A DNA stretch of 64,000 bases from an uncultured Gammaproteobacteria bacterium (GTDB lineage: Bacteria; Pseudomonadota; Gammaproteobacteria; Methylococcales; Methylomonadaceae), in NCBI GenBank assembly GCA_963696315.1, contig CAVOJU010000014.1, positions 56,605-120,604 on the forward strand, read 5' to 3'. Of this stretch, positions 8,869 through 58,155 are shown piece by piece. The notes beneath the pieces were generated by a model that was not told the origin of the DNA, did no database searches, and worked only from the letters and a program-made list of their open reading frames with translations. How positions within the stretch are numbered: position 1 is the first letter of the stretch; the number at the start of each line of letters is the position of its first letter. The translations under genes were made by a program, and so were the position numbers.

Positions 8869-10038
8869 TTATTGGGTCTCTTCCGGTTCCTCGTCTTTAT
8901 GGATGGCCTGCAACGACAGGTTGCCCAGCGGATCGTTTTTTGAACGATCGGGTGCGCCGGCCGGCGAGACCGAGCCCAGCCCCGCGCTCAGATTGATTTT
9001 CAGTTTGAGGTTGTTAGGTGAGTCGGAGTTTTGCAGCGCTTCTTCCAGTGAAATAGTACCTTGCTTAAACAGCCTCAACAGATGACTGTCAAAGGTCTGC
9101 ATGCCGACATTTTCGGATTTTTCCATGGCTTCCTTGATGCTGTGAATGTCGCCTTTATGGATCAAGTCACGCACCAGTTGCGTACCCAGCAAAATTTCAA
9201 TGGCGGCAGTGCGCGTGCCATCCATAGTGGGCACTAGACGTTGCGAGACAAAGGCTTTTAAATTCAATGACAAATCCAGCAGTAATTGCGATCGGCGCTC
9301 TTCCGGGAAAAAATTGATGATTCTGTCCAAAGCCTGATTGGAATTGTTGGCATGCAGGGTAGACAAGCATAAGTGCCCGGTTTCGGCGAATGCCAGCGCG
9401 TGTTCCATGGTTTCGCGAGTCCGGATTTCGCCAATCAGAATGACATCGGGCGCCTGCCGCAGCGTATTTTTCAGGGCGTCTTCATAGCTTAGGGTATCGA
9501 CGCCGACTTCCCGCTGGTTGACCAGTGATTTTTTATGCGGGTGCAAGTATTCGATAGGATCTTCAATAGTGATGATATGGCCGGAGGCATTGCTGTTGCG
9601 ATAATCGATCAGGGCTGCCAACGAAGTCGATTTGCCGGAACCGGTGCCGCCAATAAAGAGAATCAGGCCGCGTTTCTCCATGATGGATTTTTTCAGGATC
9701 GTTGGTAAACCGAGTTTGTCGGCATTGGGGATATCCACTTTAATATTGCGAATGACCAGCGCAAAGGAATTACGCTGCTTGAAAATGTTAACCCTGAATC
9801 GGCCAATGCCGGGTTCAGAGATGGCCAGATTCATTTCGGGCACATGTTCAAACGCCTTTTGCTGGTCGGTATCCATCAGGCTGTAGGCGATTTCTTTCAG
9901 GCGCTCATTGGTCAGGACAATGTTTTCCAAGGGTTTTAATGTGCCCTCAAATTTGGCTGCCGGTGGTGCGCCGGTGGTCAAATAAAGGTCGGAGCCATCT
10001 TTGTGAACGAGTATTGTGAGGTAGTCTTTGAATTCCAT
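8869..10038 (-). CDS. pilU: Type IV pilus retraction ATPase PilU (PilT family).
   Basis: GGTGSGKST Walker A, PilT-family His box, and the PilU-like DLYLTTGAPP motif. Confidence 0.85.
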   Translation of the reverse strand: MEFKDYLTILVHKDGSDLYLTTGAPPAAKFEGTLKPLENIVLTNERLKEIAYSLMDTDQQKAFEHVPEMNLAISEPGIGRFRVNIFKQRNSFALVIRNIKVDIPNADKLGLPTILKKSIMEKRGLILFIGGTGSGKSTSLAALIDYRNSNASGHIITIEDPIEYLHPHKKSLVNQREVGVDTLSYEDALKNTLRQAPDVILIGEIRTRETMEHALAFAETGHLCLSTLHANNSNQALDRIINFFPEERRSQLLLDLSLNLKAFVSQRLVPTMDGTRTAAIEILLGTQLVRDLIHKGDIHSIKEAMEKSENVGMQTFDSHLLRLFKQGTISLEEALQNSDSPNNLKLKINLSAGLGSVSPAGAPDRSKNDPLGNLSLQAIHKDEEPEETQ

Positions 10039-10159
10039 AGTTAGGCTCTAGTGCTGAAAAATAGGGTGGCTTTTAGTTTAGTAGGCGATACCAGAAGTTG
10101 AAGCGGAGAGCGCGAATAAACGCGTATAATGGCAGTTTTTTTATGTATTTTCGGGTGTT

Positions 10160-13851: not shown

Positions 13852-14780
13852 ATGAAGCCCATTCAAGTCGCCGTTGGCGTGGTTAAAAACGCAAGCGGGG
13901 AGGTTTTAATTGCGCGGCGCGATCCGTCTTTGCATCAGGGTGGTTTGTGGGAGTTTCCGGGGGGCAAGATTGAGCGGGGTGAGAGGGCTGAACAAGCCCT
14001 GATTCGGGAACTCAAGGAAGAACTCAATCTGACGGTTGAATCGTCAATGCCGTTTATTACTATTAGCCATCACTATCCCGATCGGACGGTTGAGTTACAA
14101 GTGTTTCTGGTGCAACAGTTTTCCGGCCTTGTTAAAGGCTGTCAGGGCCAGCCGTTTCGCTGGGTCAATTCAGATGAGTTGGAGCGCTTTGCTTTTCCTG
14201 AAGCTAACCGGTCGATTATCACCGCAGCCAGATTGCCGCCTTATTATGCCATTTTGGATGATGCGGATGAGTCACAGCTGCGGGTCAATCTTGAAAAAAT
14301 ATTGAGCAGCGGCATTAAGCTGATTCAGGCCAGATTAAAAACGCTGTCAGCATATGCGGCGGAAAAATTTATCGAGCAGGCTTATCCTTTGTGCCGGCAG
14401 CAGGGCTGTTGGTTGTTAATCAATTCCGCTGTTGAACCAGCCTACAGGCTGGCTGTGGACGGCATTCACTTAACCGCCAGGCATTTGCTGGCGCTTGATA
14501 AACGGCCAGAAGGCCTGCTCTGGTTAGCGGCATCTTGCCATAACCTCGAGGAAATGCAGCATGCGCAAAAATTAGGTGTGGATTTTGTGGTGCTGGCGCC
14601 GGTATTGGCAACGGCAACGCACCCCGGCGTAGAGGCCTGGGCTGGCAAAAGTTTGCAGAGCTGGTTACGCATTGCAATGTACCTGTGTATGCCTTGGGTG
14701 GAATGTCGCTAAATAGTCTGGATAGGGCACGGCAGGCTGGCGCTCAGGGAATCGCCGCGATCAGGGCTTTTTTGGATTGA
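13852..14780 (+). CDS. Nudix (MutT-like) hydrolase fused to a thiamine-phosphate-synthase-like (ThiE-like) domain, with a frameshift near 14640.
   Basis: The N-terminus carries a Nudix box (GGKIERGERAEQALIRELKEELNL). The C-terminus is TMP-TENI/ThiE-like; an alternative frame after about 14640 restores the conserved end, ...VPVYALGGM...GAQGIAAIRAF. Confidence 0.75.
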
Positions 14781-14781
14781 G

Positions 14782-14988
14782 CTAGTGCAGGTAGGACTCG
14801 TTCTCGTTGTCAGGGTCTTCGGGTAAGGGTTCACCGGCTATTCTTCTTTCTTCCATGGCCCATTCGCCAAGGTCTATTAGTTTGCAGCGTTCACAGCAGA
14901 AAGGTTTGAACAGCTGTTCGGCTGTCCAGGGTACCGGACGGCCGCAAGTTGGACATTTTACTGTGAGTGGTTTGCCGGGCGCGCTCAT
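14782..14988 (-). CDS. yacG: DNA gyrase inhibitor YacG.
   Basis: CPTCGRPV...[14 protein letters not shown] zinc-ribbon signature, 68 aa. Confidence 0.9.
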
Positions 14989-15764
14989 CAGAGCAGGCAG
15001 CAGGTCAATAAAAAAGGAATATTATCAGGGCTTTGGCTGGGGCGTTTGTTATCAGAGGAGGGCATCATAAAGCGGATGGTGCTGCGATGCTTGCCGCCAC
15101 TGATTTCGGCAAAGCAGGGAATCGATTTGTCCACACTGACTTTAAGCAGCTGGAACGGTTGCCCTCTGTCAAAGGAAATTTGGAAAAATCCGGCCTCTGC
15201 GACTTCTTCCCTGGGAATGCTGCTGTTGCGGATAAAATCAAGAATCAGGTTGATGGCCGTGCGTATGTCTGCAAACGGACTACACCAGTGTTCCAGATCT
15301 TTTGATCGTACGGCCTCATCTTGTTCGAGCCAGTAATGGAATTCGGGTAAATCGAAGGAGCAGGTGCCGCCGGGTATGGAGCTTCGTTGAGCAATGCTCT
15401 GGAATAAATCACTCTCCAATACATTGATGCCGACTTTACCGTTAGCGGCATAGAGACTTTTAATGGTTTGGGTTAACTGCGCCAGCAATTGCTCCAGTTT
15501 TTCTTTGTCAACATTGTGGCTGTTGGCGATTTTATGTAGTAATTGACTATGCCGCTCCAGTTCTTTCAGTATCTCTGTTTTGATGTTGTTGCGGCTGAAA
15601 ATCATCATGATATCAAGCAGCACACCGATAGCAGCGCGGCTGTCGATAACGCTGGAGCCGGCCAGAAAATGATTAAATTGTAAAAATAGTTGTTCGAGCC
15701 GTATGAAAACCCGGATTCGTTCATTGAGTGGAAATTCATAGGTGATGGTATTGTTCACAGACAA
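14988..15764 (-). CDS. zapD: Cell division protein ZapD.
   Basis: 258 aa matching ZapD over its full length; conserved yacG-zapD-coaE order. Confidence 0.85.
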
Positions 15765-15765
15765 G

Positions 15766-16368
15766 TTAATCCTGACTAGCGCTAAGTGAAATATACAAAT
15801 TGTGCAGTTTTTTTACCTGCTCTGCAAGCCCGGATTCAGTTTTGGAGTTATCGATCAGATCGTCGGCCTTTGATTTTCTTAGTGTACGTGAGGCTTGGCT
15901 GGCGATTATTGATTCAATTCTTGCTGTGCTCAGATGATCCCTGTTTTTAACCCGTTCAATCTGCGTTTCGACCGGGCAGTCCACAACCAGTATCCGGTCA
16001 ACAAAGTGCAGCATATTGGTTTCAAATAACAAGGGGATACAAATGATGCAATAAGGTGCGCTGAGTTGTTCCAGTTCTGCTTGCAGGGTTTTATAAACCA
16101 GGGGATGAAGAATGGCTTCCAGTTTTTGCTTTTGCTCGGGATCGGAAAAAACAATCTCCCGGAGATGGCTTCTGTCCAGAGAGCCATCGGACTTGACTAT
16201 GCATGAGCCGAAGGCTTGCTGTATTTTGACAAGCGCGGGTTGGCCCTTGGCAACCAGTTGATGGGCGACTACGTCAGCATCAAGCACAGGGCTTCCTAAT
16301 TCGGCAAATAAGCGGGCTACCGAAGTTTTACCGGAGCCGATGCCGCCGGTCAGGCCAATCTTGAGCAT
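15766..16368 (-). CDS. coaE: Dephospho-CoA kinase.
   Basis: GLTGGIGSGKT P-loop, 200 aa. Confidence 0.9.
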   Translation of the reverse strand: MLKIGLTGGIGSGKTSVARLFAELGSPVLDADVVAHQLVAKGQPALVKIQQAFGSCIVKSDGSLDRSHLREIVFSDPEQKQKLEAILHPLVYKTLQAELEQLSAPYCIICIPLLFETNMLHFVDRILVVDCPVETQIERVKNRDHLSTARIESIIASQASRTLRKSKADDLIDNSKTESGLAEQVKKLHNLYISLSASQD

Positions 16369-16372
16369 GTCT

Positions 16373-17251
16373 TTACAGGCCGGCGGCGGCTAAATAGAGC
16401 TGATTGATGTCATGCCCCCATAATAGCGCTATCCATCCCGCGGCAGCCAGATAGGGGCCAAAAGGAATGGGGACGGTGTGATCACGTTTTACAAAAATGA
16501 TCATGGCTATGCCGATAATTGCTCCTACCAGGGATGACAGCAATATGATGAGCGGCAGATATTGCCAGCCCAGCCAGGCGCCGAATAAGGCCAGCAATTT
16601 AAAATCGCCAAAGCCCATACCCTCTTTTCCGGTGGCCAGTTTGAACAGCTGATACACCATCCAAAGGCTTAAATAACCGGCAATGGCGCCGATAATGCTG
16701 GAATGCGCATCGGTAAACACATTAAACAGGCTTAAAAACAGGCCGAACCAGAGCGCCGGCAGGGTGATTGAATCGGGCAGCAACTGATGGTCTATATCAA
16801 TAAAGCTTAATGCAATCAGCGACCAGGTGAGCAACAAAGCAAACAGGGTTTGCGCTGAGCCGCCAAAATGCCAGGCTACCAGAACTGAAGTTATGGCGGT
16901 AAAGGCTTCTATGATGGGATAGCGCAATGAAATAGGATGTCCGCAATGCGCGCAGCGGCCTTTTAAAAAAACATAGCTGAGGACGGGAATGTTTTGGTAA
17001 GGCTTGATGGGTGTTTTGCAATTCGGGCAGCGCGACAAGGGGAGTAGTAGATTGAAAGGCTCCTCATTCTGGGGTTGGCTATTATCAATTTGCAGGTAAT
17101 CGGTGCATTCCTGGCGCCAGTTGCGCTGCATCATGACCGGCAGACGGTAAATCACGACATTAAGAAAGCTGCCTACCAGCAGGCCGACAATGCCAGCCAG
17201 CCCGGCAAACAGGTACGGTGAATCGAAAAGAAGGGTTAATGATTGCTGCAT
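16373..17251 (-). CDS. pilD: Prepilin peptidase / N-methyltransferase PilD (A24 family).
   Basis: Cys-rich N-terminal region (CPNC...CAHC) followed by a polytopic peptidase A24 domain. Confidence 0.9.
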   Translation of the reverse strand: MQQSLTLLFDSPYLFAGLAGIVGLLVGSFLNVVIYRLPVMMQRNWRQECTDYLQIDNSQPQNEEPFNLLLPLSRCPNCKTPIKPYQNIPVLSYVFLKGRCAHCGHPISLRYPIIEAFTAITSVLVAWHFGGSAQTLFALLLTWSLIALSFIDIDHQLLPDSITLPALWFGLFLSLFNVFTDAHSSIIGAIAGYLSLWMVYQLFKLATGKEGMGFGDFKLLALFGAWLGWQYLPLIILLSSLVGAIIGIAMIIFVKRDHTVPIPFGPYLAAAGWIALLWGHDINQLYLAAAGL

Positions 17252-17328
17252 ATGTTATGGAATAAGAAACGCCCCGGGTTAGGGGGCGTCAGTTGAGGAA
17301 TGGTTCTGGTTTTTAAAGTGATAAAAAT

Positions 17329-18549
17329 TTAACCCACTGCGGCGCCCAATTTGAATATAGGCAGATACATCGCTATCACCAACCCGCCGACCAGTGTGCC
17401 CAATACCACCATAATCATCGGCTCCATCAAGCTGCTTAAGTTATCAATCAGGTTGTCGACTTCTTCTTCATAAAAATCGGCCACTTTTGAGAGCATGGCA
17501 TCGAGAGAGCCGGATTCTTCGCCAATCGCAACCATTTGCGTGACCATGTGTGGAAACAGATTGACCTGTTGCATGGAAAACTGCAAACGTTGACCTGTCG
17601 CGACATCTTCGCGCATTTTTAAAACTGCTTCCTGGTAAATAATATTGCCACAAGCGCCGGAGACCGATTCCAGGGCATCTATAAGCGGCACCCCGGCAGC
17701 CGACATCGTGGCTAGTGTTCTGGCAAAACGGGCGATGGCTGATTTGTGTAAAATCAGGCCGATAATGGGGATTTTTAGGAAGGTCTTGTCCAGGAAATGA
17801 CAAAATTTGTGCGAACGTTTCTTGAAATAGGTGAAGGTAAAAACAGCAATACCAATGCTGCCAAACAGGATCCACCACCATTCCTGCATCCATTCCGACA
17901 TGCCGATAACCATCTTGGTGAAGGCAGGCAAATCCGCGCCAAAACTATGAAATAGGTCTTCAAAAACAGGGACTACAAACAGCAACAGAATGGCGGTAAC
18001 AATAAAGGCAACTACGAGCACTGCAATGGGATAAGTGAGTGCCTTTTTAATTTTTTTCTTGATGGATTCGGTTTTTTCTTTGTAGGTGGCAATTTTATCC
18101 AGCAGCGTTTCCAATACCCCCGCCTGCTCGCCGGCCGCCACCAGATTGCAGAATAATTCGTCAAAATACAGGGGTCTTTTTCTAAGCGCTTCGGCCAAGG
18201 TGTCGCCGCTTTCAATATCCGCTTTGATGTCCAGCAGCATTTTTTGCATGCTCGGATTGTCGTGGCCTTTGCCAATGATATCGAATGATTGCACCAAGGC
18301 CACACCGGCTTCCAACATGGTCGCTAATTGCCGCGCAAAAATTGCGATATCGGCAGGGGTTATGGATTGGGCTTTTGCGGTAAAGAGCGGCTTGGATTTT
18401 TTCTGGATTCTGATAACGCGTATGCCTAAGCGTCGTAAATCCGAGCGTGCGATCGTCTCGCTTTTAGCAGATACCTCGCCCTTGGTTTTTTTGCCACTTT
18501 TGTCGGTGCCTTGCCAGATGAAATCCAGTTGTTCAATTTGATCAGCCAT
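17329..18549 (-). CDS. pilC: Type IV pilus assembly platform protein PilC (GspF family).
   Basis: Duplicated T2SS-F domains, 406 aa. Confidence 0.9.
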   Translation of the reverse strand: MADQIEQLDFIWQGTDKSGKKTKGEVSAKSETIARSDLRRLGIRVIRIQKKSKPLFTAKAQSITPADIAIFARQLATMLEAGVALVQSFDIIGKGHDNPSMQKMLLDIKADIESGDTLAEALRKRPLYFDELFCNLVAAGEQAGVLETLLDKIATYKEKTESIKKKIKKALTYPIAVLVVAFIVTAILLLFVVPVFEDLFHSFGADLPAFTKMVIGMSEWMQEWWWILFGSIGIAVFTFTYFKKRSHKFCHFLDKTFLKIPIIGLILHKSAIARFARTLATMSAAGVPLIDALESVSGACGNIIYQEAVLKMREDVATGQRLQFSMQQVNLFPHMVTQMVAIGEESGSLDAMLSKVADFYEEEVDNLIDNLSSLMEPMIMVVLGTLVGGLVIAMYLPIFKLGAAVG

Positions 18550-18553
18550 TGTT

Positions 18554-20266
18554 TTATTCCTTGGTTACGCGGTCGATTTCTTCCAGGCTGGTAATGCCCT
18601 GGCGAACTTTGTTTAAGCCTGATTCCCGTAAATCATTGATGCCTTCGGATTTGGCTTGCTCGGCGAGTTGCATGGCATTGCCGCCTTCGAGAATTAGTCC
18701 TCGCATGCGCTCACTCAAAGTCATGACCTGATAAATGCCGACCCTGCCTTTGTAGCCATTGGTGCAGTGCTCGCAGCCAGCAGGGCTAAAAATTTTCAGA
18801 TTTTTTAACTCATCGGCTTTAAAGCCGGCGGAAAGCAGCAGGTTATCGGGAAAAACGGCGGGGGTTTTGCAATGCTCGCATAAGCGCCGCGCCAGTCGCT
18901 GCGCCATGATGAGAAGCACGGCTGAGACGATATTAAAGGGTGCAATACCCATTTGCATCAGCCGGTTCAAGGTTTGCGGGGCATCGTTGGTATGCAGGGT
19001 TGATAAAACCAGGTGGCCTGTTTGCGCGGCCTTGACGGCAATCTCGGCGGTTTCCAGATCCCGGATTTCGCCGACCATGATAATGTCAGGGTCTTGGCGC
19101 AGGAAGGCGCGTAAAGCCGTCGCAAATGTTAAACCGGCTTTAATGTTCATGTTAACCTGATTGATGCCGTTCACGGTAATTTCAACCGGATCTTCGGCCG
19201 TGGAAATATTGCGCTCGATGCTATTGAGCAGATTTAAACCCGTGTAGAGCGTCACGGTTTTACCGCTGCCGGTAGGGCCGGTCACCAGAACCATGCCATA
19301 GGGTTTATTGATGGCCTGCAAGAAAAGTTTTTCCTGTTCTGGTTCAAAGCCCAGTTTTTCGATACCGATTTGCGCACTGGTAGGATCAAGAATACGCAAA
19401 ACCACTTTTTCACCGAACAATGTAGGACAAGTATTGACCCGAAAATCAATGGCGCGATGTTTGGACAAGGTCATTTTGATGCGTCCATCCTGAGGCACAC
19501 GGCGTTCGGCAATATCCATTTTTGCCATCACCTTGATTCTGGAAATAATTCGGTTGGCGATATTGGACGGCGGACTGGCGACTTCATAGAGCATGCCATC
19601 AGCCCTGAAGCGAATGCGGAAATTTTTTTCATAAGGCTCCAGGTGAATATCGGATACGCCTTTTTTGATCGAATCCAGCAGGATTTTATTGACGAAGCGG
19701 ACGATAGGGGCGTCATCAATATCGGCGTTGATGTCATCCTTGGCCGCATCATCGGCGCCGGGCGCGACGCTCAGATTTTCCAGATCAGCATCCAGCAAAT
19801 CCGCCATTGAGGTATCGGCGGCCTCCATCGCGGCTTCTATGGCTCTGACCAGTTTGCTTTCCTCAACCAGGATGGTTTCAGGATTGAGCCGGCTATGAAA
19901 TTTTATTTCATCTAGGGCCTGAAAATTGGTGGGATCCGAGATGCCGATAAACAGGGTTTTACCGCGCGTAAAAAGGGGTAAGACATGATGATTGCGTATT
20001 AGTTTTTCGTTGAGAACTTTGATAGGCAGGCTGCGCAAGTCGATGGCATCGAGATCAAAAAAAGGCATGCCAAATTCAATTGAAGCTTTTGAGGCAATAG
20101 TTTTGCTATCGACCAGCTTGTTGGTAACGAGATAGCTGATTAACGGCATCTTCTTTTTTTGCGCTTCCTGAATATGAAGCAGCGCTTCGCTTTCAGTCAA
20201 CAGGCCGTCCTGAACCAGGCAGTTGGCAAGAGCGTTAAATTGGATGTCAGTTAAAATGGCTGCCAT
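18554..20266 (-). CDS. pilB: Type IV-A pilus assembly ATPase PilB.
   Basis: GspE-N domain, Walker A VTGPTGSGKT, and a C-terminal tetracysteine motif. Confidence 0.9.
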   Translation of the reverse strand: MAAILTDIQFNALANCLVQDGLLTESEALLHIQEAQKKKMPLISYLVTNKLVDSKTIASKASIEFGMPFFDLDAIDLRSLPIKVLNEKLIRNHHVLPLFTRGKTLFIGISDPTNFQALDEIKFHSRLNPETILVEESKLVRAIEAAMEAADTSMADLLDADLENLSVAPGADDAAKDDINADIDDAPIVRFVNKILLDSIKKGVSDIHLEPYEKNFRIRFRADGMLYEVASPPSNIANRIISRIKVMAKMDIAERRVPQDGRIKMTLSKHRAIDFRVNTCPTLFGEKVVLRILDPTSAQIGIEKLGFEPEQEKLFLQAINKPYGMVLVTGPTGSGKTVTLYTGLNLLNSIERNISTAEDPVEITVNGINQVNMNIKAGLTFATALRAFLRQDPDIIMVGEIRDLETAEIAVKAAQTGHLVLSTLHTNDAPQTLNRLMQMGIAPFNIVSAVLLIMAQRLARRLCEHCKTPAVFPDNLLLSAGFKADELKNLKIFSPAGCEHCTNGYKGRVGIYQVMTLSERMRGLILEGGNAMQLAEQAKSEGINDLRESGLNKVRQGITSLEEIDRVTKE

Positions 20267-20408
20267 AAGAGGGTTAAATTAATGTCGAGGTCTATAGGCA
20301 AATATAGATGAATTGAATAGTTTGTCCAACAAATGCAAGTGAGGGGGCAGAAAGTCCAAGGCTAAAGATGCATGCAAACACCTGAAGCCCTGCGCTTTTC
20401 CGGTTTGT

Positions 20409-23322
20409 TTATAACGCCTGGATTTTTCGCTGCTGCTGTTCAAGATTATTCAACGACGAGCGTAAATCCGTCAGTTTTGCTTTTTCCTTGTCGATGACAT
20501 CTGCCGGTGCTTTATCAACAAAGCTCGGGTTGTTGAGCTTGCCTTCTATGCGCGGCAGTTCCTTGATGATTTTCTGGATTTCCTTGTCCAGACGGGCCAG
20601 TTCTGCTGCTTTGTCGATCAAACCAGCCATGGGAATCAGGATTTTCATCTCGCCGACCAAAGCAATGGCGGATTCGGGTGCCTGCTGTTCCCTGCTTAAC
20701 CAGGTGATGCTGTCCAGTCGGCCGAGTTTTTGCAAATAAGTCAGGTTGTTGCTGACCAGGGCCTGATCAGCAGGCGTGCCGTTTTGCAGCAAGACCGGCA
20801 AGGGTTTGCCAGGCGCGATATTCATTTCGCCACGGATACGGCGCACGCCCAGAATAAAATTCATTAGCCAGTCGATTTCACTGATGGCGGCGGTGTCAAT
20901 CAGTGCTTCATCCGCTACCGGATACGGTTGAAGCATGATGGTTTCGCCTCTATGCCGTTTAATGGCGCCACGCGCTGCCAGATTTCCTCTGTAATAAACG
21001 GCATTAAAGGATGGGTCAGCCGGAGCAGGGTTTCCAGAACGGTCAGCAGATTTTGCGGGTGCCGCGTTGTAGCGGTTATCCGCCGGGCTCGCTCCATGTG
21101 AGTTTGCGGTATACATACCATCCTTGGCGATCGCCGCACCCGTTCTCGACGGGTTTGCGGCATACACACCATCCTTGGCGATACCAGATTGCAGTGATAT
21201 TTTGGCCAGTTCCAGATACCAGTCGCAGTATTCATTCCAGGCAAATTCATAAATGGCCTGCGCTGCCAAGTCGAAGCGGTAGTTGTCGATAGCGTGCGTG
21301 GTCATTGCCGATTGACCTGATGTAGCCGCGAAATAATCCAGCGATCTGCCAAACTGTAGCTCAAATTCAACGCTGCCATAAATACCATTGTCTTGATTTT
21401 CGGTATTCATCAACACGTAAGCGCGCGGCATTCCAGAGTTTATTGCAGAAGTTGCGGTAGCCTTCGGTGCGGGCCAAATCAAAGCGAATGTCGCGGCCGG
21501 TTGATGCCAAGGAGGCAAACGTGAAACGCAAGGCATCAGTACCGAAAGATGAAATGCCGTCCGGAAATTGTTTGCGCGTGGCCTGCTCGATTTTCTTCGC
21601 CAAATGCGGTTGCATCATGCCGGAGATGCGTTTTTCAACCAGGGCTTCCAGATCAATGCCGTCGATCAAATCAATCGGATCGAGGACATTGCCTTTGGAT
21701 TTGGACATTTTCTGGCCTTCGGCATCACGCACCAGACCGTGAATGTATACTTCCCTGAACGGCACTTGGCCCTGAAATTTCAGCCCCATCATGATCATGC
21801 GGGCCACCCAGAAGAAGATGATGTCAAAGCCGGTGACCAGCACGCTGGTCGGGTAATGTTTGGCCAGTTCCGGGGTATTTTCCGGCCAGCCCAGCGTGGA
21901 GAAAGGCCAAAGCGCTGATGAAAACCAGGTGTCCAGCACATCTTCATCCTGCGTCAGAACATAGCCGTCCGCTAGCTTGTGTTGTTCACGGACTTCCTGT
22001 TCGGAGCGTCCGACATAAACATTGCCTTCGGCATCATACCAGGCCGGGATGCGGTGTCCCCACCAGATTTGCCGGGAGATACACCAGTCCTGGATGTTGC
22101 GCATCCAGTCAAAATAGGTATTTTTCCAGTTATCGGGCACAAATTTGATGGCGCCGGTTTCGACCGCTTCGATAGCGGGCTTGGCCAGCGGTTCAACTTT
22201 GACATACCACTGGTCGGTTAACAGCGGCTCAATCACCGTACCGGTGCGATCGCCCCTCGGCACCATCAATTTATGATCGACGATTTTTTCCAGTAAACCC
22301 TGGCTTTCCAGGTCGGCAACCATTTGTTTACGGGCTTCAAAGCGATCCAGACCAATATACTTTTCCGGTATCAGAGTGTATTCATCATCGTTGCTGCGAA
22401 TGGTCGCATCCACGGTGAAAATATTAATCAGGCCGCCGTGAGGCAAATCGCTGATGGCGGAGGTATCACGGTGGCGCATCCATACCGCGTAGTCATTGAA
22501 GTCATGCGCTGGTGTAATCTTGACACAGCCAGTGCCGAATTCGGGATCGACATAGTCATCGGCAATGATGGGAATACGGCGGCCGGTAAGCGGCAGTTCC
22601 ACAAATTCGCCGAGCAGATGCTTATAACGCTCGTCATTGGGATGGATGGCGACCGCGGCGTCACCGAGCAGGGTTTCCGGGCGCGTGGTGGCGACAATCA
22701 GATGGCCGGTACCGTTGCTCAAGGGATAACGCATATGCCACATGGAGCCGTTTTCTTCTTCAGACAGCACTTCCAGATCGGAGACGGCGGTATGCAGCAC
22801 CGGATCCCAGTTGACCAGGCGCTTGCCGCGATAAATCAGGCCTTCTTCATACAGCCGGATAAACACCTCCTGAACGGCCTCGGACATGCCCTCATCCATG
22901 GTGAAACGTTCCCGGTTCCAGTCCAGCGACGAGCCCATGCGCCGCAATTGACGGGTAATGGTGCCGCCGGACTGTTCCTTCCATTCCCAGATTTTTTCGA
23001 CGAATTTGTCCCGCCCATAATCATGGCGGGTTTTGCCTTCGGCATTACACAAGCGTTCCACGACCATTTGCGTGGCAATGCCGGCATGGTCGGTGCCCGC
23101 TTGCCACAGCGTGCTGTAGCCTTTCATGCGGTGGTAACGAATCAAGGCATCCATGATGGTGTCCTGGAAGGCATGGCCCATATGCAGGCTGCCAGTGACA
23201 TTGGGCGGCGGAATCATGATGCAGTAGGATTCACCATCCTGTTTGGGGGCAAAATAGCCTTTTGCTTCCCAGGTCTGATACCAGCGTTGTTCAATTAAAT
23301 GGGGGGCGTATGTTTTTTCCAT
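20409..23322 (-). CDS. valS: Valine--tRNA ligase. It spans at least three reading frames and contains an intragenic repeat insert.
   Basis: The N-terminal 651 aa (ORF 21367..23322) carries HMGH and KMSKS. The anticodon-binding domain and coiled coil are in ORF 20409..21536. A short stretch ([33 protein letters not shown]) reads only in the frame of ORF 20915..21250. Frame breaks lie near 21410, within 21082-21182, and near 20945. Confidence 0.85.
21082..21182 (-). repeat. Two tandem copies of a 51-nt unit inside valS, read through in the gene's frame as [17 protein letters not shown] / [17 protein letters not shown].
   Basis: atcgccaaggatggtRtgtatRccgcaa... units at 21132-21182 and 21082-21131 (gene orientation). 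The same unit occurs in holC. Confidence 0.8.
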
Positions 23323-23346
23323 GAATGTTGGCTATTTTTCTAAGGT

Positions 23347-23832
23347 TCAATGATTGATTTTATGCGTAGTAATCGCCATTCCTGACTGTTGATACTGACG
23401 ATAGCGCTGTCTGCCTGCGGCTTTGCTTGCTTCGCTGTTATCGAGAATTTCAAGGATTCGTGCGGCTTGTGCAGATGCTTGCGGGCAGGCTGAAGATAAG
23501 TTGACTACGGTTTGCTGCCAGTTGGCGGGCGGGGGTAGTGAGCCAATCAGAATAATTTTATCACCGGCCGCGCTCGCTCCCTGCGAGCTTGCGGCATACA
23601 CACCATCCTTGGCGATACCCGGCAACTCACCGGTAAAAATCTGGTGCGGAATAAAACTGCCTGCCCGGAAAGTCCAGAGCAGGTCGTCTATTTTTTGGCT
23701 TTGTTCTGCATTGTCGGTGAGCACGTAGCAATAGTGGCCGCTACGATAGGCTTTTTCTATCAGTTTGCAGGCGAACAGATAGCGATCCTGTAAGGATTCG
23801 GAGGACAGGATGTAAAAGCTGACGTCGGGCAT
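23347..23832 (-). CDS. holC: DNA polymerase III subunit chi.
   Basis: 161 aa with the HolC N-terminal fold (MPDVSFYIL...LWTFR). It contains an in-frame insert, [19 protein letters not shown]. Confidence 0.8.
   Translation of the reverse strand: MPDVSFYILSSESLQDRYLFACKLIEKAYRSGHYCYVLTDNAEQSQKIDDLLWTFRAGSFIPHQIFTGELPGIAKDGVYAASSQGASAAGDKIILIGSLPPPANWQQTVVNLSSACPQASAQAARILEILDNSEASKAAGRQRYRQYQQSGMAITTHKINH
23566..23616 (-). repeat. Single copy of the 51-nt intragenic repeat unit inside holC, flanked by ACC/ACC (+ strand) direct trinucleotides.
   Basis: ggccgcgctcgctccctgcgagcttgcggcatacacaccatccttggcgat matches the valS units. Confidence 0.8.
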
Positions 23833-25518: not shown

Positions 25519-26589
25519 ATGATAGCGCTGGATTTGCTCACTACGCTGCTGTCGGTTTTATCGGTGATTGTCGTTATTATTGTCAGCCGGCAATTTATCA
25601 GGATTCTTGATAAGGCAATTGAAGGGCAGGTGTCCAACGAGACTTTATTCAGTATTCTGGGTTTGAAAACGGTGGTTGCCGGCATTGCTTTTTTGCCTGC
25701 TGCCTTGTTCATGGCGGTATTAATGGTCATTGGCAGGATGTACCGGGATCAGGAAATGTCCGCTGTGTTTTCAGCCGGTGGCGGAGCAGGAACTATTTAT
25801 AGGGCGGTATTCCTGCTGGTCTTTCCGCTTAGTGTGCTGAGCCTTGGTTTGGCAATGTACGCGGCGCCGTGGGCGGAAGCCAGGACGGGGCAGTTAACCC
25901 AAAAGGATGAGCAGTCTGCCGATATTAGAGGTATTGCCGCGGGAAAGTTTACTGAATATAGTCAGGGCGATCTGGTTTTTTATGTAGAAAAGATCACTGC
26001 CGATAAAAAATTGCAGCAAGTCTTCGTGCAGCACAGGCAAGGTGAAAGACTGGCGATTACGAATGCCGAAGAAGGGCGGCTGGAAGATTTGCCCGACGGA
26101 CGTTACATGATTCTGGAACGGGGTGAGCGCGTGGAGGGATCACCTGGAGGGCTTAAGTATAATATTGAAAACTTCAGTGAATATGCGGTGAGAATAGATG
26201 AAAAAACCTCGGCCGCCAATGTCGACCGGGAAGCTCTCGATACGCATTTGTTGTGGAATTCCAAGGAGCCGAGGGATGTCGCCGAGTTGCAACGGCGTTT
26301 TTCCATCCCCTTGGGTGTGATATTTCTGACCTTTCTGGCGGTGCCTTTGGCGCAGTCCTCCCCCCGTGCCGGCGTCTATGGCAACATGCTGGTCGCCTTT
26401 TTAATTTATTTTAGTTACGGCAATCTTCTGCGTATCAGTCAGAGTTGGGTTATGAAGGAAACGATTCCTGCCTGGGTGGGTAGTTTCTGGCTGTATCTGG
26501 TCCTGTTGATAATTGGCGGGATTCTGTTGGCAAAATTCTATGGGTGGCAGTGGCTTATCATGAAAATCAGGGATAAGGTGGCGAGATGA
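25519..26589 (+). CDS. lptF: LPS export ABC permease LptF.
   Basis: YjgP/YjgQ-family permease. The start is chosen at MIALDLL; the ORF track extends to 25435. Confidence 0.8.
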   Translation: MIALDLLTTLLSVLSVIVVIIVSRQFIRILDKAIEGQVSNETLFSILGLKTVVAGIAFLPAALFMAVLMVIGRMYRDQEMSAVFSAGGGAGTIYRAVFLLVFPLSVLSLGLAMYAAPWAEARTGQLTQKDEQSADIRGIAAGKFTEYSQGDLVFYVEKITADKKLQQVFVQHRQGERLAITNAEEGRLEDLPDGRYMILERGERVEGSPGGLKYNIENFSEYAVRIDEKTSAANVDREALDTHLLWNSKEPRDVAELQRRFSIPLGVIFLTFLAVPLAQSSPRAGVYGNMLVAFLIYFSYGNLLRISQSWVMKETIPAWVGSFWLYLVLLIIGGILLAKFYGWQWLIMKIRDKVAR

Positions 26590-27654
26590 ACGTATTAACG
26601 TCTTATGTGGTAAGGGAAATTCTAAAAGGCTCGCTGGTTGCGATGCTGTTGCTGCTGACCCTATTTAATTTGTTTACCTTCAGTGACGAGTTAAAGGCTT
26701 TAGGCAAAGGCAATTACGGATTAAGAGAGATTTTTTATTATTTGGCCTTGACCTCGCCGCGGGTCTTTTATGAATTAATGCCTTCCTCAGCCTTATTAGG
26801 CAGTCTTTTTATTCTTGGGGCTATGGGCAACAATCGCGAATTGATTGCCATGCGAGCAGCCGGTTTGTCGATCCTTGGCATAATAAAAGCGGTGATGTTG
26901 GCGGGGGTTCTGTTAGTGATAATCTCCGTTGTGGTCGGTGAATTTGTTGCTCCCTACACTGAGCGCGCGGCGCAACTGCTTAAGACTACTGCCAAAAATG
27001 AGCAAGTGGTCATGGAAACCCGATATGGGCTTTGGTTGCGTGAAGGTAAAAAATTCATCAATGTCCGGAAATTAGAAGATGACGGCAGTCTGGCAAATAT
27101 TTACATTTATGAGCGGGATGATCAATCTCGATTACGGCAGGCCTTGTATGCGGCAAAGGCTACTTTCTTGGGCCAGCAGCAATGGAAGCTCGAGCAAATC
27201 CAGCAATCAGCAATTTCAAATGAACAAATGGCCGCCAATAGTCAAGCCGAGCAGACTCTGGACATCCTCGATTGCGCCGGATTTGTTAAAGATTGTCGTG
27301 GTTAATCCAGATAATTTATCGCTGTATGACTTGCTCATGTATATCGATTTTTTAAAGGGAAATCATCAAAAATCGCAGCGTTTCGAGATGGCGTTCTGGG
27401 GCCGGGTTGTTAATCCTTTGGTTACCTTCGTGATGCTGCTGGTATCGGCGCCCTTTGTTATCGGCGTCAAACGTGGCGTCAGTGTGGGTGCGCGGATGAT
27501 GCTCGGCGTTGTTATTGGCATGGGCTTTAACATTCTTGACAAAATTGTCGGTCACATGGGGCTTATCTATGAGCTCAATCCGCCACTCATGGCGGCTTTT
27601 CCCAGTTTGACGGTATGTGCCTTGGCGCTATTTGCAATAAAGCGCGTGCGTTAA
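26586..27654 (+). CDS. lptG: LPS export ABC permease LptG, with a frameshift near 27265.
   Basis: ORFs 26586..27305 and 27079..27654 together make one YjgP/YjgQ permease; the C-terminal part (...APDLLKIVVVNPDNLS...) is in an adjacent frame. Confidence 0.8.
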
Positions 27655-51664: not shown

Positions 51665-51717
51665 TGACTCGCAAGTCGCCTCACTTTCTTTAGGTAATAA
51701 GCTATTAAGGATTTTGC

Positions 51718-51887
51718 GAGAAATAACTTACTGTTAAATTTTTCCGTTCGTCCTGAGCATAATCGAAGAATGAATGGAAAAATTCCAGCCCGAAACGTCA
51801 TGCCGATCATGCTTCGACGAGCTCAGCACGAACGGCTTGACGAACACAATAGCGATTTCGGGAAGTTATTGATGACCAAATCCTAAT
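51718..51887 (+). repeat. Structured repeat of about 170 nt, copy A (candidate MITE or small RNA).
   Basis: About 90% identical to 55431-55599. It contains a 15-bp inverted repeat, ccgttcgtcctgagc...gctcagcacgaacgg, with an extended stem. Confidence 0.7.
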
Positions 51888-55345: not shown

Positions 55346-55430
55346 GACATTACGACAGCAAAATGAACAATCCGTTGCAAAGTCAGCGGTGGCAAAAGCA
55401 ATGGCCATAGCGTGGATTAAGGATATGGCG

Positions 55431-55599
55431 GGAAATAACGTACCGTTAAATTTTTCCGTCTCGTCCTGAGCACAACCGAAGGATGCATGGAAAAATTCCA
55501 ACCCTAAGCGTCAAGCCGATCATGCTTCGACAAGCTCAGCACGAACGGCTTGACGAACACAATGGCGATTTCGGGAAGTTATTGATGACCAAATCCTAA
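55431..55599 (+). repeat. Structured repeat of about 170 nt, copy B.
   Basis: Direct copy of 51718-51887. Confidence 0.7.
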
Positions 55600-55667: not shown

Positions 55668-55729
55668 CTGTAGGAGCGACGCCCACGTCGCGATTTGAAG
55701 CACGGTGGGCGGGGCGTCGCTCCCACAAT
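55668..55729. repeat. Inverted pair of REP-like palindromes (tgtaggagcgacgcccacgtcgcg / reverse complement).
   Basis: The same unit recurs at 58129-58155. Confidence 0.7.
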
Positions 55730-56011: not shown

Positions 56012-57055
56012 ATGACTACCACTATCGAAATCAGCGAATCGGTCCGCCATTACTATGGTCAGGTTCTGCAATCCAGCAACGACCTGAAAACCAGCGCCTG
56101 TTGCAGCATCGACGCCATGCCCGGCTATTTAAAAGCCTTGCTGGCCGGACTGCATCCTGAAGTGCTGGAGCGTTTTTACGGTTGCGGTTCGCCATTGCCG
56201 CCGGCTCTGGAAGGCAAGACCGTGCTTGATCTGGGCTGCGGCACCGGCCGCGACTGCTATCTGCTGTCGAAACTGGTCGGCCCGAGCGGGCGGGTGATCG
56301 GTGTGGATATGACGCCGGAACAACTCGAAATCGCCGTGCGCCATCGCGACTGGCACGCCGAGCGCTTTGGCTATGCCAATGTCGATTTTCTGCACGGCCA
56401 TATCGAAAACTTGGCCACGGTGGGCATTGCTGACAACAGCATCGACGTGGTGGTCTCCAATTGCGTGATCAACCTGTCGCCGGAAAAGCCCCGCGTGCTG
56501 GCGGAAATCTTCCGGGTGCTGAAGCCGGGCGGCGAACTGTATTTTTCCGATGTGTTTGCCGACCGCCGCATTCCGACCGAACTGCGCCAGGACCCGGTGC
56601 TGCTGGGCGAATGCCTGGGCGGCGCCTTGTATTGGGAAGACTTCCGGCGCATCTTGCAGGATCTGGGCTGCCCGGACGTACGCGCCGTCAAGCAAAATGC
56701 GATCAGCCTCGACGACCCCGAAGTGTTTGCCAAAATCGGCATGGTCAAGTTCCATTCGGTGACCGTGCGCGCCTTCAAAATGCCGCTGGAAGACCGCTGC
56801 GAAGACTTCGGCCAAGTGGCCATGTACTTGGGCAGCATCGATCAACACCCGCACAGCTTCGACCTGGACGACCATCATCATTTCGAAACCGGCCGGCCGC
56901 TGCGGGTCTGCGGCAATACCGCCGACATGCTGGCCGGCAGCCGCTATGGCGATCACTTTCAGGTCTTGGGCGATAAATCCCGCCACTTCGGTTTGTTCGA
57001 CTGCGCGCCGGGACCAGGCAGCGAAGCCGCCAGGGCGGACGGCGCATGCTGCTGA
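56012..57055 (+). CDS. arsM: Arsenite S-adenosylmethionine methyltransferase.
   Basis: 347 aa with the VLDLGCGTGRDCY SAM motif and conserved Cys residues (CC at the N-terminus, C near 150-200). GC is about 64%. Confidence 0.85.
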   Translation: MTTTIEISESVRHYYGQVLQSSNDLKTSACCSIDAMPGYLKALLAGLHPEVLERFYGCGSPLPPALEGKTVLDLGCGTGRDCYLLSKLVGPSGRVIGVDMTPEQLEIAVRHRDWHAERFGYANVDFLHGHIENLATVGIADNSIDVVVSNCVINLSPEKPRVLAEIFRVLKPGGELYFSDVFADRRIPTELRQDPVLLGECLGGALYWEDFRRILQDLGCPDVRAVKQNAISLDDPEVFAKIGMVKFHSVTVRAFKMPLEDRCEDFGQVAMYLGSIDQHPHSFDLDDHHHFETGRPLRVCGNTADMLAGSRYGDHFQVLGDKSRHFGLFDCAPGPGSEAARADGACC

Positions 57056-58058: not shown

Positions 58059-58128
58059 AAATATAACGTAACTATTCGGCCAGGCGAACATGTGGCGGTT
58101 GGAGCCGCTCTGGATTGGCAGGATTCAC

Positions 58129-58155
58129 TGTGGGAGCGACGCCCACGTCGCGCCG
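58129..58155. repeat. REP-like palindrome (tgtgggagcgacgcccacgtcgcgcc).
   Basis: Same unit as 55668-55729. Confidence 0.7.

Follow-up and report, generated by a model that had tools for sequence, protein, structure and literature searches.

Introduction

Selfish DNA that resides in frame within essential genes has so far been discussed mainly as a peculiarity of Rickettsia, tied to the reductive genomes of an intracellular lifestyle. Other inserts in genes, such as the 'byp' elements, the mobile GC clusters of yeast mitochondria and that of phage T4 gene 60, either are passed over by the ribosome or break the reading frame. The Rickettsia palindromic elements (RPEs), which go back to Ogata et al. 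(2000), are repeats of ~105-150 nucleotides (nt) that have been divided into families RPE-1 to RPE-10, with about half or fewer of their copies reported in genes (PMC10969869, PMC3184786). Together with BRE and the intragenic copies of ERIC, RUP, and BOX, for which PMC5896051 is a further source, they are the systems against which we compare a 51-nt palindromic unit found in 64,000 nt of DNA from an uncultured gammaproteobacterium of the Methylomonadaceae (GenBank assembly GCA_963696315.1, contig CAVOJU010000014.1, positions 56,605 to 120,604 of the forward strand). This entire stretch, hereafter the window, carries the unit twice in tandem in valS and once in holC.

The 51-nt units are likely to constitute a dispersed, non-autonomous palindromic family that is confined to Methylobacter, Methylovulum, and close Methylococcaceae, and that persists as translated, tolerated selfish DNA in the manner of the RPEs. 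The family is apparently undescribed; our search of the literature found no report of the unit, of its peptides, or of such a repeat in Methylobacter.

Three copies of the unit in the window

The minus strand of the window contains three occurrences of a 28-nt core, ATCGCCAAGGATGGTRTGTATRCCGCAA (21104-21131, 21155-21182, and 23589-23616), compared to 0 matches in 100 dinucleotide-preserving shuffles of the same DNA. The three-copy family also emerges from repeat finding (family D2), and an nhmmer profile of the family returns exactly these three matches. Each copy is 51 nt long, a multiple of three that corresponds to 17 codons. A preliminary description of the window had already recognized the tandem pair, the single copy, and their divisibility by three, all of which are borne out with no copy expected by chance; its coordinates were likewise right, except that the valS pair begins at 21081, one base before the 21082 then given (Table 1).

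In holC, a single open reading frame (ORF) reads through the unit, and the Pfam DNA_pol3_chi match extends over residues 1-154. As previously placed, the insert sits between HQIFTGELP and KIILIGSL, in a stretch that is unaligned against the E. coli chi structure 1em8. In-frame translation had been claimed for both genes; it holds for holC, but the frame of valS is broken in the window, where the blocks CDWYLELAK and TRH..LL said to bracket a read-through insert fall in different frames, and the valS units are in frame only in orthologues. A tryptic peptide such as DGVYAASSQGASAAGDK is predicted to span the insert of HolC or ValS. Although holC had been described as essential, it is not strictly so in E. 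coli.

Table 1. Positions of the units, their host genes, and related features in the window
Feature	Position	Strand	Description
holC (DNA polymerase III chi)	23347-23832	minus	intact, 161 aa; hosts one unit
holC unit	23566-23616	minus	head, then hairpin GCCGC-AA-GCTCGC-AGGGA-GCGAGC-GCGGC; nhmmer 53.1 bits; DNA fold -16.1 kcal/mol, z -3.7
Hairpin of holC unit	23567-23595	minus	unit positions 22-50; stacked stems of 5 + 6 bp, 2-nt bulge, loop AGGGA
valS	20409-23322	minus	hosts the tandem pair; broken by six frameshifting indels
valS unit 1 (5′ copy of the pair)	21132-21182	minus	head ATCGCCAAGGATGGTGTGTATGCCGC; stem ACCCGT/ACGGGT; nhmmer 55.7 bits, E 1.6e-15
Hairpin of valS unit 1	21133-21161	minus	family stem pairing, DNA fold
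valS unit 2 (3′ copy, more decayed)	21081-21131	minus	stem ACTCAC/GCGAGC, pairing incomplete; nhmmer 41.2 bits
valS indel cluster relative to contig L058	20948-21418	minus	+A at 21418; +GCGT at 21370-21373; +AT at 21311-21312; -1 at 21074, 21050, and 20948; net +1
REP palindromes	55668-55692 and 58128-58152		sequence CTGT(A/G)GGAGCGACGCCCACGTCGCG; GTAG/GTGG-tagged, 96% identical to each other, intergenic

A hairpin family of methanotrophs

A scan of one genome per species with the pattern GCCAAGGATGGTNTGTATNCCGC yielded 57 loci, every one of them from Methylobacter, Methylovulum, unnamed Methylococcaceae, or unnamed gammaproteobacterial metagenome-assembled genomes (MAGs). Among the sources are the isolates M. 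tundripaludum SV96 and M. svalbardensis, to which a protein of M. psychrophilus can be added. Within the 57 loci the nhmmer profile makes 107 matches, many of them in tandem series of two or three at 51-nt intervals, and 94 of the copies align without gaps (alignment A1) to give the consensus ATCGCCAAGGATGGTGTGTATGCCGCAAGCCTGCCGGGAGCnGGCGCGGCG. No Rfam family matches the unit region or the window as a whole, and no match to the unit was found in plasmid and phage collections. Three consensus peptides in tandem, used as a query, matched just 16 short hypothetical ORFs, a result that is uninformative on host range. Among the annotated proteins, P0244-P0256 are hypothetical products of 50-80 aa made almost wholly of tandem units, which are probably spurious ORFs over intergenic arrays.

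The unit opens with a conserved 26-nt head, ATCGCCAAGGATGGTGTGTATGCCGC, and ends in a hairpin of 5 bp and 6 bp around a consensus loop CGGGA, in which unit positions 22-26 pair with 46-50 and positions 29-34 with 40-45. In the 94-copy alignment, 92.6% of the cells assigned to this hairpin are paired, against 25-51% when the partners are slid, and compensatory changes affecting both sides occur at 10 of the 11 pairs across 84 distinct copies; neither the observed pairing nor the covariation was reached by any of 500 shuffles. G.T and A.C mispairs in the stems are about equally frequent (29 and 32), so that neither strand is favored, which points to a palindrome maintained at the DNA level rather than an RNA element. 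Folding of the unit, suggested earlier as a check, gives ~-16 kcal/mol for DNA (z ~ -3). We discarded a comparison of head conservation with flanking synonymous sites as circular, the loci having been selected by the head pattern.

Judging from the sequences, resident copies decay. A partial in-frame deletion in the 151-aa HolC of Methylobacter sp. G7 (P0174), where only 'IAKDGMYAA' is left at the holC site, shows the erosion of a copy.

Residence in genes and frame bias

Clustering of the flanks resolves ~43 distinct sites, of which ~34 lie in or at the end of Pfam-confirmed coding sequence, 2 are ambiguous, and ~7 are intergenic (for example, between iscS and iscR, beside rplI, and between ruvX and algH). 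The in-gene share approximates the coding density of the genomes, and genes are thus not avoided. The proposal of the preliminary description, a REP- or MITE-type palindromic element (that is, resembling repetitive extragenic palindromes or miniature inverted-repeat transposable elements) that lives in frame in coding sequence as RPEs do, is well supported by these sites, drawn from more than 30 independent assemblies. Counts by location and by length modulo three, which it recommended, give for the scanned loci a length that is always a multiple of three and a strong bias of frame.

Host ORFs stay open through inserts of 51, 102, or 153 nt. A Pfam domain spans the insert in HolC, EPSP synthase, NadD, the T2SS ATPase, a heptosyltransferase, PepSY_TM, DabA, and Maf, while the insert lies between or beside Pfam domains in RapA, AceE, LeuS, and YhdP; further hosts are also confirmed, and AroA is among the host genes.

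The use of the six frames at gene-resident sites is extremely uneven (chi-square p ~9e-15). Sense frame s0, which reads IAKDGVYAA..., accounts for 24 sites, with hosts that comprise HolC, an EPSP synthase/prephenate dehydrogenase fusion, a NadD-like protein, the T2SS ATPase, Slt, DUF58, DUF447, an ABC permease, LeuS, ValS, MMPL, YhdP, and a CopD-like protein. Antisense frame a1 follows with 6 (a heptosyltransferase, PepSY_TM, DabA with three copies, AceE, DUF29, and the C-terminus of GshB), then a0, also antisense, with 2 (RapA and one YhdP site). Antisense frame a2 and sense frame s1 have a single site each, in a CopD-like protein and, as a 75-nt variant, in Maf; s2 has none, which makes 24:1:0 for the sense orientation alone. 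The favored frames specify small, Ala/Gly-rich, Cys-free peptides, and the avoided ones peptides rich in Cys, Arg, and Trp. This skew is the signature of selection on the translated product, and it argues against ribosomal bypass or excision. The family consensus lacks a stop codon in all six frames.

Locus L043 (2637-2711, 5622-5696, and 7728-7804) holds atypical forms. Two 75-nt variants there share an extra 24 nt (CTTCGxCTACGCTCAGGAGAGCCC) within the hairpin region, one being read in s1 inside Maf and the other in a0 inside YhdP, and a head-to-head inverted pair of units with overlapping hairpins is also present in YhdP; all of these are nested or rearranged derivatives.

Filled and empty sites among relatives

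Homologues of HolC differ in length by whole 17-residue blocks in alignment, from 144 aa with no unit through 160 or 161 aa with one, 177-180 aa with two, and 195 aa with three, to 214 aa with four. The empty holC of L059 is 92.6% identical in nucleotide sequence to that of the window and exactly 51 nt shorter, the junction being ambiguous solely through microhomology. ValS behaves similarly, with lengths of 935/936, 952/953, and 969 aa. The proteins of Methylomonas, Methylomarinum, and Methylicorpusculum have 935-936 aa and no unit, and those of Methylobacter are longer by 17 or 34 residues. The alignment of orthologues that had been called for thus confirms both insertion points, with a copy number among close relatives of 0-4 in holC and 0-2 at a valS site; the finding that would have told against an insertion, the same peptides in all relatives, is absent, since the outgroup genera and L059 carry no unit. 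Clean 51-nt insertions that leave no target duplication also distinguish filled from empty alleles at the N-termini of a GNAT protein (L030 versus L031) and of a CopD-like protein (L048 versus L011).

Across genomes the ValS units occupy three sites, namely, site 1 after WYQTWEEQGYF, site 2, which is that of the window, and site 3, after a block ending in (I/V). Sites 2 and 3 are occupied alternately, each being empty where the other is filled. Units in these synthetases are seen in L027 (2140-2241 and 4471-4521), L044 (3277-3378 and 1120-1221), and L052 (6863-6913), with up to four in a single ValS protein. A unit in LeuS lies in the loop homologous to ValS site 1, just before the strand bearing the HIGH motif; the recurrent use of one loop of class I synthetases suggests a permissive site or a target preference.

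Alignments to known structures break exactly at the inserts and place them in loops between helices or strands. For ValS, the alignment to the anticodon-binding domain 4xkz falls into query residues 5-90 and 132-229, and in that to the Thermus thermophilus enzyme 1gax the segment 575-662 directly abuts 662-749; for HolC, the alignment to E. coli chi (1em8) is divided into 3-72 and 111-156. These loop positions come from sequence alignments to PDB entries, as an AlphaFold2 model of HolC from a 16-sequence alignment was too poor for the purpose (mean pLDDT 48).

Flanks, tandem arrays, and clues to mechanism

The sites share a flanking signature, with T at position -1 and A or T at position -2 in 41 of 43 cases each, A at +1 in 23, and G at +4 in 36. 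The right flank is often ATYG, which echoes the ATCG at the start of the unit. Where a copy already exists, its left junction (T|ATCG) consequently looks like a preferred target, and this would explain the in-phase tandem arrays. At 12 of 14 array sites, the 5′ copy has kept its sequence better than the 3′ copy has (p = 0.013), and in holC the copy common to most lineages (...SSQGASAA) is the 3′ one, with extra copies placed 5′ of it. Slippage also contributes, as seen in the arrays of identical copies in L006.

An ACC/GGT trinucleotide had been described as flanking both insertions and taken for a possible target duplication. It is present on both sides only in the holC of the window and on one side only in valS, and duplication is not general: the two filled/empty pairs are free of it, and the holC site reads GAT...ATT, GGT...ATT, or GGT...AGT elsewhere. 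We therefore rejected this candidate. The missing duplication, the hairpin, the conserved head, and the lack of a nearby transposase would fit a single-stranded hairpin mobilized in trans, of the IS200/IS605 or RAYT type.

Frameshifts in valS and lptG

The valS gene of the window is represented by two ORFs, of 651 aa (21367-23322) and 375 aa (20409-21536), and three-frame translation finds six changes of frame between 20948 and 21418. CDWYLELAK and both units share one frame, LQRGTRK is in a second, and a further block is in the third. The best match is the intact P0001 of the closest relative (contig L058), which shows 98% amino acid identity across 651 N-terminal aa and, at the corresponding place, has two units in frame. 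The L058 contig aligns to window positions 14000-23327 at 95.5% nucleotide identity, an alignment in which the six valS indels are the only ones in coding sequence and form a cluster surrounding both units. Substitutions are also denser at this patch (29 mismatches in 21250-21499, compared to ~10 per 250 nt elsewhere).

Another essential gene, lptG, is likewise split, into ORFs 26586-27305 and 27079-27654, which match positions 2-224 and 225-353 of the Pfam LptF_LptG profile; its frameshift must accordingly lie near 27080-27300, and the split suggests an indel-prone assembly. Given a relative that is 95.5% identical with an intact ValS, and the broken lptG, the valS indels are probably errors of consensus or assembly rather than biology. 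Strain heterogeneity in repeat copy number may have triggered their clustering. A true valS pseudogene was considered and judged unlikely, with the indels confined to 470 nt, the other 2.4 kb clean, 98% amino acid identity to an intact orthologue, and lptG split as well.

The first three indels (~21311-21418) flank a second hypervariable spot of ValS, the loop LMNTE|GQDNG (~21390-21410). L027 carries 16 extra residues there (DDCMDAGGRAMQGAIAGE) and P0025 carries 22 (STTLSAGTSNPLSAGTEISSLS); both are unrelated to the head of the 51-nt unit and may represent a different short insert.

holC and valS are neighbors in the window, L027, L044, L008, and L024, an adjacency that is disrupted among the closest relatives. 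Upstream of valS in L058 are a YafQ-toxin-like gene and small ORFs (9718-10088, in place of window positions 23323-23346), while the homology of L022 ends with holC (L022 ~1576 onwards), so that the rearrangement breakpoint coincides with the start of valS.

Other repeats in the window

The 3′ half of the unit had been likened to the REP palindromes of the window. The match, GGAGCGAGC, is real but extends over only 7-9 nt, and it derives from a stem variant present in the holC copy and the downstream valS copy. We rejected homology in favor of a coincidence of that one variant: the family stem is variable at this place, the nhmmer profile has no additional match in the window, and the product encoded between the REPs is a methyltransferase and not a REP transposase. 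The REPs have the architecture GCGACG-CCCA-CGTCGC and belong to a different family. The gene block that they enclose includes the class I methyltransferase gene at 56012-57055 and no RAYT. The second copy of a ~185-nt repeat (51704-51886 and 55416-55599, ~90% identical, families D1 and D4) stands beside the REP at 55668; this repeat has an internal inverted repeat, CCGTTCGTCCTGAGC...GCTCAGCACGAACGG, and may be MITE-like.

Origin and persistence of the unit

How such a unit might live in genes can be outlined from these features. A length of 17 codons and the lack of stops in six frames mean that an insertion would add 17 residues to a protein instead of destroying the gene, and the stem would be free to vary in sequence provided that pairing is kept. 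The persisting copies would mainly be those whose peptides are small, rich in Ala and Gly, and free of Cys, and fall in loops, linkers, or termini. Spread may proceed via a single-stranded DNA hairpin intermediate, with an enzyme supplied in trans (HUH/Y1-transposase-like), or via template switching, and new copies may land in phase, 5′ of an existing copy at T|ATCG, thereby building the 51-nt arrays.

Several points weigh against this account of translated, mobile selfish DNA. Among the genes checked beside copies, a check that did not extend to whole genomes, there is no Y1 transposase, RAYT, or other mobilizing gene, and the neighbors of intergenic copies are housekeeping genes. The term mobile rests on presence and absence among species that are 75-95% identical, with no insertion event caught between near-identical genomes. 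That the inserts are translated is deduced from the frame bias, and a strand-specific mechanism of insertion, rather than selection, could underlie part of the difference between sense and antisense. Openness in six frames is only suggestive, as 7-10% of composition-matched shuffles are equally open, and we set it aside as a sign of adaptation. The seemingly perfect agreement of the heads between species is exaggerated by the choice of loci with the head pattern; in the unbiased pair formed by the window and L058, the valS units diverge faster than their surroundings, being 92% and 84% identical (4/51 differences for the 5′ copy and 8/51 for the 3′ copy) against 95.5% for the flanks. A stronger version, in which the element is actively mobile and adapted to coding sequence through its 17-codon length, six-frame openness, and benign peptides, and moves as a single-stranded hairpin without duplication, with a self-targeted left junction and 5′ growth of arrays, is offered tentatively, and we would sooner bet against it than for it. 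If it is true, essential proteins would have undergone a linker-insertion scan by nature, in the first RPE-like system whose host is tractable and culturable.

A different view holds that the unit benefits its host, as a REP-like DNA or RNA structure (a protein-binding site, mRNA stabilizer, or pause site) or as a selected flexible linker, and is kept for that function. The high similarity of the heads, the hairpin kept by compensatory change, the holC site occupied through the divergence of many Methylobacter lineages, and the N-terminal loop occupied in both ValS and LeuS can all be cited for it. We nevertheless regard it as unlikely, because, at every site examined, the insert is missing from close relatives (including the 144-aa HolC at 92.6% nucleotide identity and the alternately empty ValS sites 2 and 3), copy number drifts between 0 and 4, and older copies decay, as in the lost stem of the 3′ valS copy of the window and the HolC remnant of Methylobacter sp. 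G7. Furthermore, stems without strand bias speak against a function in RNA, and head conservation is partly an effect of ascertainment.

The remaining alternatives question the inserts themselves. Removal before or during protein synthesis, by ribosome hopping as in T4 gene 60 or mitochondrial 'byp' elements or by processing of RNA or protein, could draw on the identical GGT codons around the holC unit of the window and on an insert of ~50 nt with a stable hairpin; it is nonetheless very improbable, considering that matching codons are wanting at the same site elsewhere (GAT/ATT, GGT/ATT, GGT/AGT) and at most other sites, that no stop codon follows the putative take-off codon, and that a skipped insert would need neither a length always divisible by three, nor rarity of stops, nor an extreme bias of frame. 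The loops that receive the unit do vary in length between distant orthologues, yet the idea that no DNA was inserted, and that the peptides represent low-complexity loops of ancestral origin or convergence of protein motifs, is hardly credible and already contradicted: the same 51 nt recur in genes that are unrelated as well as between genes, and in either orientation, outgroup genera lack them, filled and empty sites of close relatives differ by exactly 51 nt, and the palindrome covaries at the nucleotide level. As for misassembly or chimeric metagenome artifacts, the window does contain errors of the assembly type (the six valS indels and the split lptG) and many loci come from MAGs, but the chance that the copies arose in this way is close to nil, given more than 30 independent assemblies that include isolate genomes (SV96 and M. 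svalbardensis, besides the M. psychrophilus protein), orthologous sites that agree across assemblies, and host ORFs that remain open through the inserts.

Significance

The unit exhibits the lifestyle so far associated with Rickettsia in abundant, culturable, free-living methanotrophs, in a much smaller format and with variable copy number at single sites. As such, it provides a tractable system for finding the activity that mobilizes gene-resident palindromes, and its sites form a natural chart of the loops that accept insertions in ValS, LeuS, chi, AroA, AceE, and other proteins. Its copies can serve as strain-level markers for Methylobacter populations. They also carry a warning for annotation and assembly, since the unit seeds spurious small ORFs and, in the window, falls in a stretch of valS with probable consensus errors.

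Comparison with known systems

Like the unit, bypassed inserts are short, GC-rich hairpins inside essential coding sequence, a likeness that extends from 'byp' elements and GC clusters to T4 gene 60. The unit differs in being codon-phased and stop-free, with frame selection at the level of the peptide, and is most likely translated; the identical take-off and landing codons and the stop codon that characterize bypass are not its features. MITEs are defined in part by target-site duplication, which the unit lacks, and the ends of its consensus share only a 4-nt CGCC...GGCG. As regards palindromes derived from IS200/IS605, the unit shows no duplication and has its hairpin at the 3′ end, and its -1 T and +4 G flanks would fit a target preference, with no TnpA identified.

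With REP/BIME and REPIN sequences the unit shares a short, GC-rich, imperfect palindrome, compensatory variation of the stem, a high copy number in a narrow clade, and insertion without target duplication, suggestive of a single-stranded hairpin mechanism. It departs from them in location, as only ~7-9 of the 43 sites are intergenic, and in sequence, as its consensus contains none of the tags GTAG, CTAC, CGTC, or GACG. It is mostly found in direct tandem arrays rather than inverted pairs, it possesses the 26-nt non-palindromic head, and no RAYT was seen near any copy examined.

The betaproteobacterial BRE of Bordetella and the intragenic copies of ERIC, RUP, and BOX are likewise small repeats with occasional in-frame fusions to protein genes, whether inside the gene or at its ends; however, their intragenic copies are a minority (~9 genes for BRE) and their units measure at least 100 nt, whereas gene residence is the rule here (PMC3184786). 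The RPEs are closer still. Both they and the unit are dispersed, non-autonomous palindromic repeats that enter many unrelated housekeeping genes in frame and without stops, add a conserved peptide at positions compatible with the fold, and have no known associated transposase (PMC10969869, PMC3184786). The hallmarks of an RPE-like functional class, namely, residence in many unrelated genes without a break of the ORF, palindromic structure, and presence or absence between relatives, are all found in the unit. It is set apart from the RPE families proper by its length and its Methylococcaceae hosts, a distinction that was not drawn from alignment to RPE sequences. At 51 nt it has a third of their size; it combines a single hairpin with a conserved head in place of a long palindrome, it forms in-phase tandem arrays of 1-4, and a larger share of its sites (~34 of 43) is in genes. 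Its hosts are free-living gammaproteobacterial methanotrophs, and those of the RPEs are obligate intracellular alphaproteobacteria. The closest analogue of the unit is therefore the RPE, followed by BRE and the intragenic ERIC, RUP, and BOX: it behaves like an RPE but is not one.

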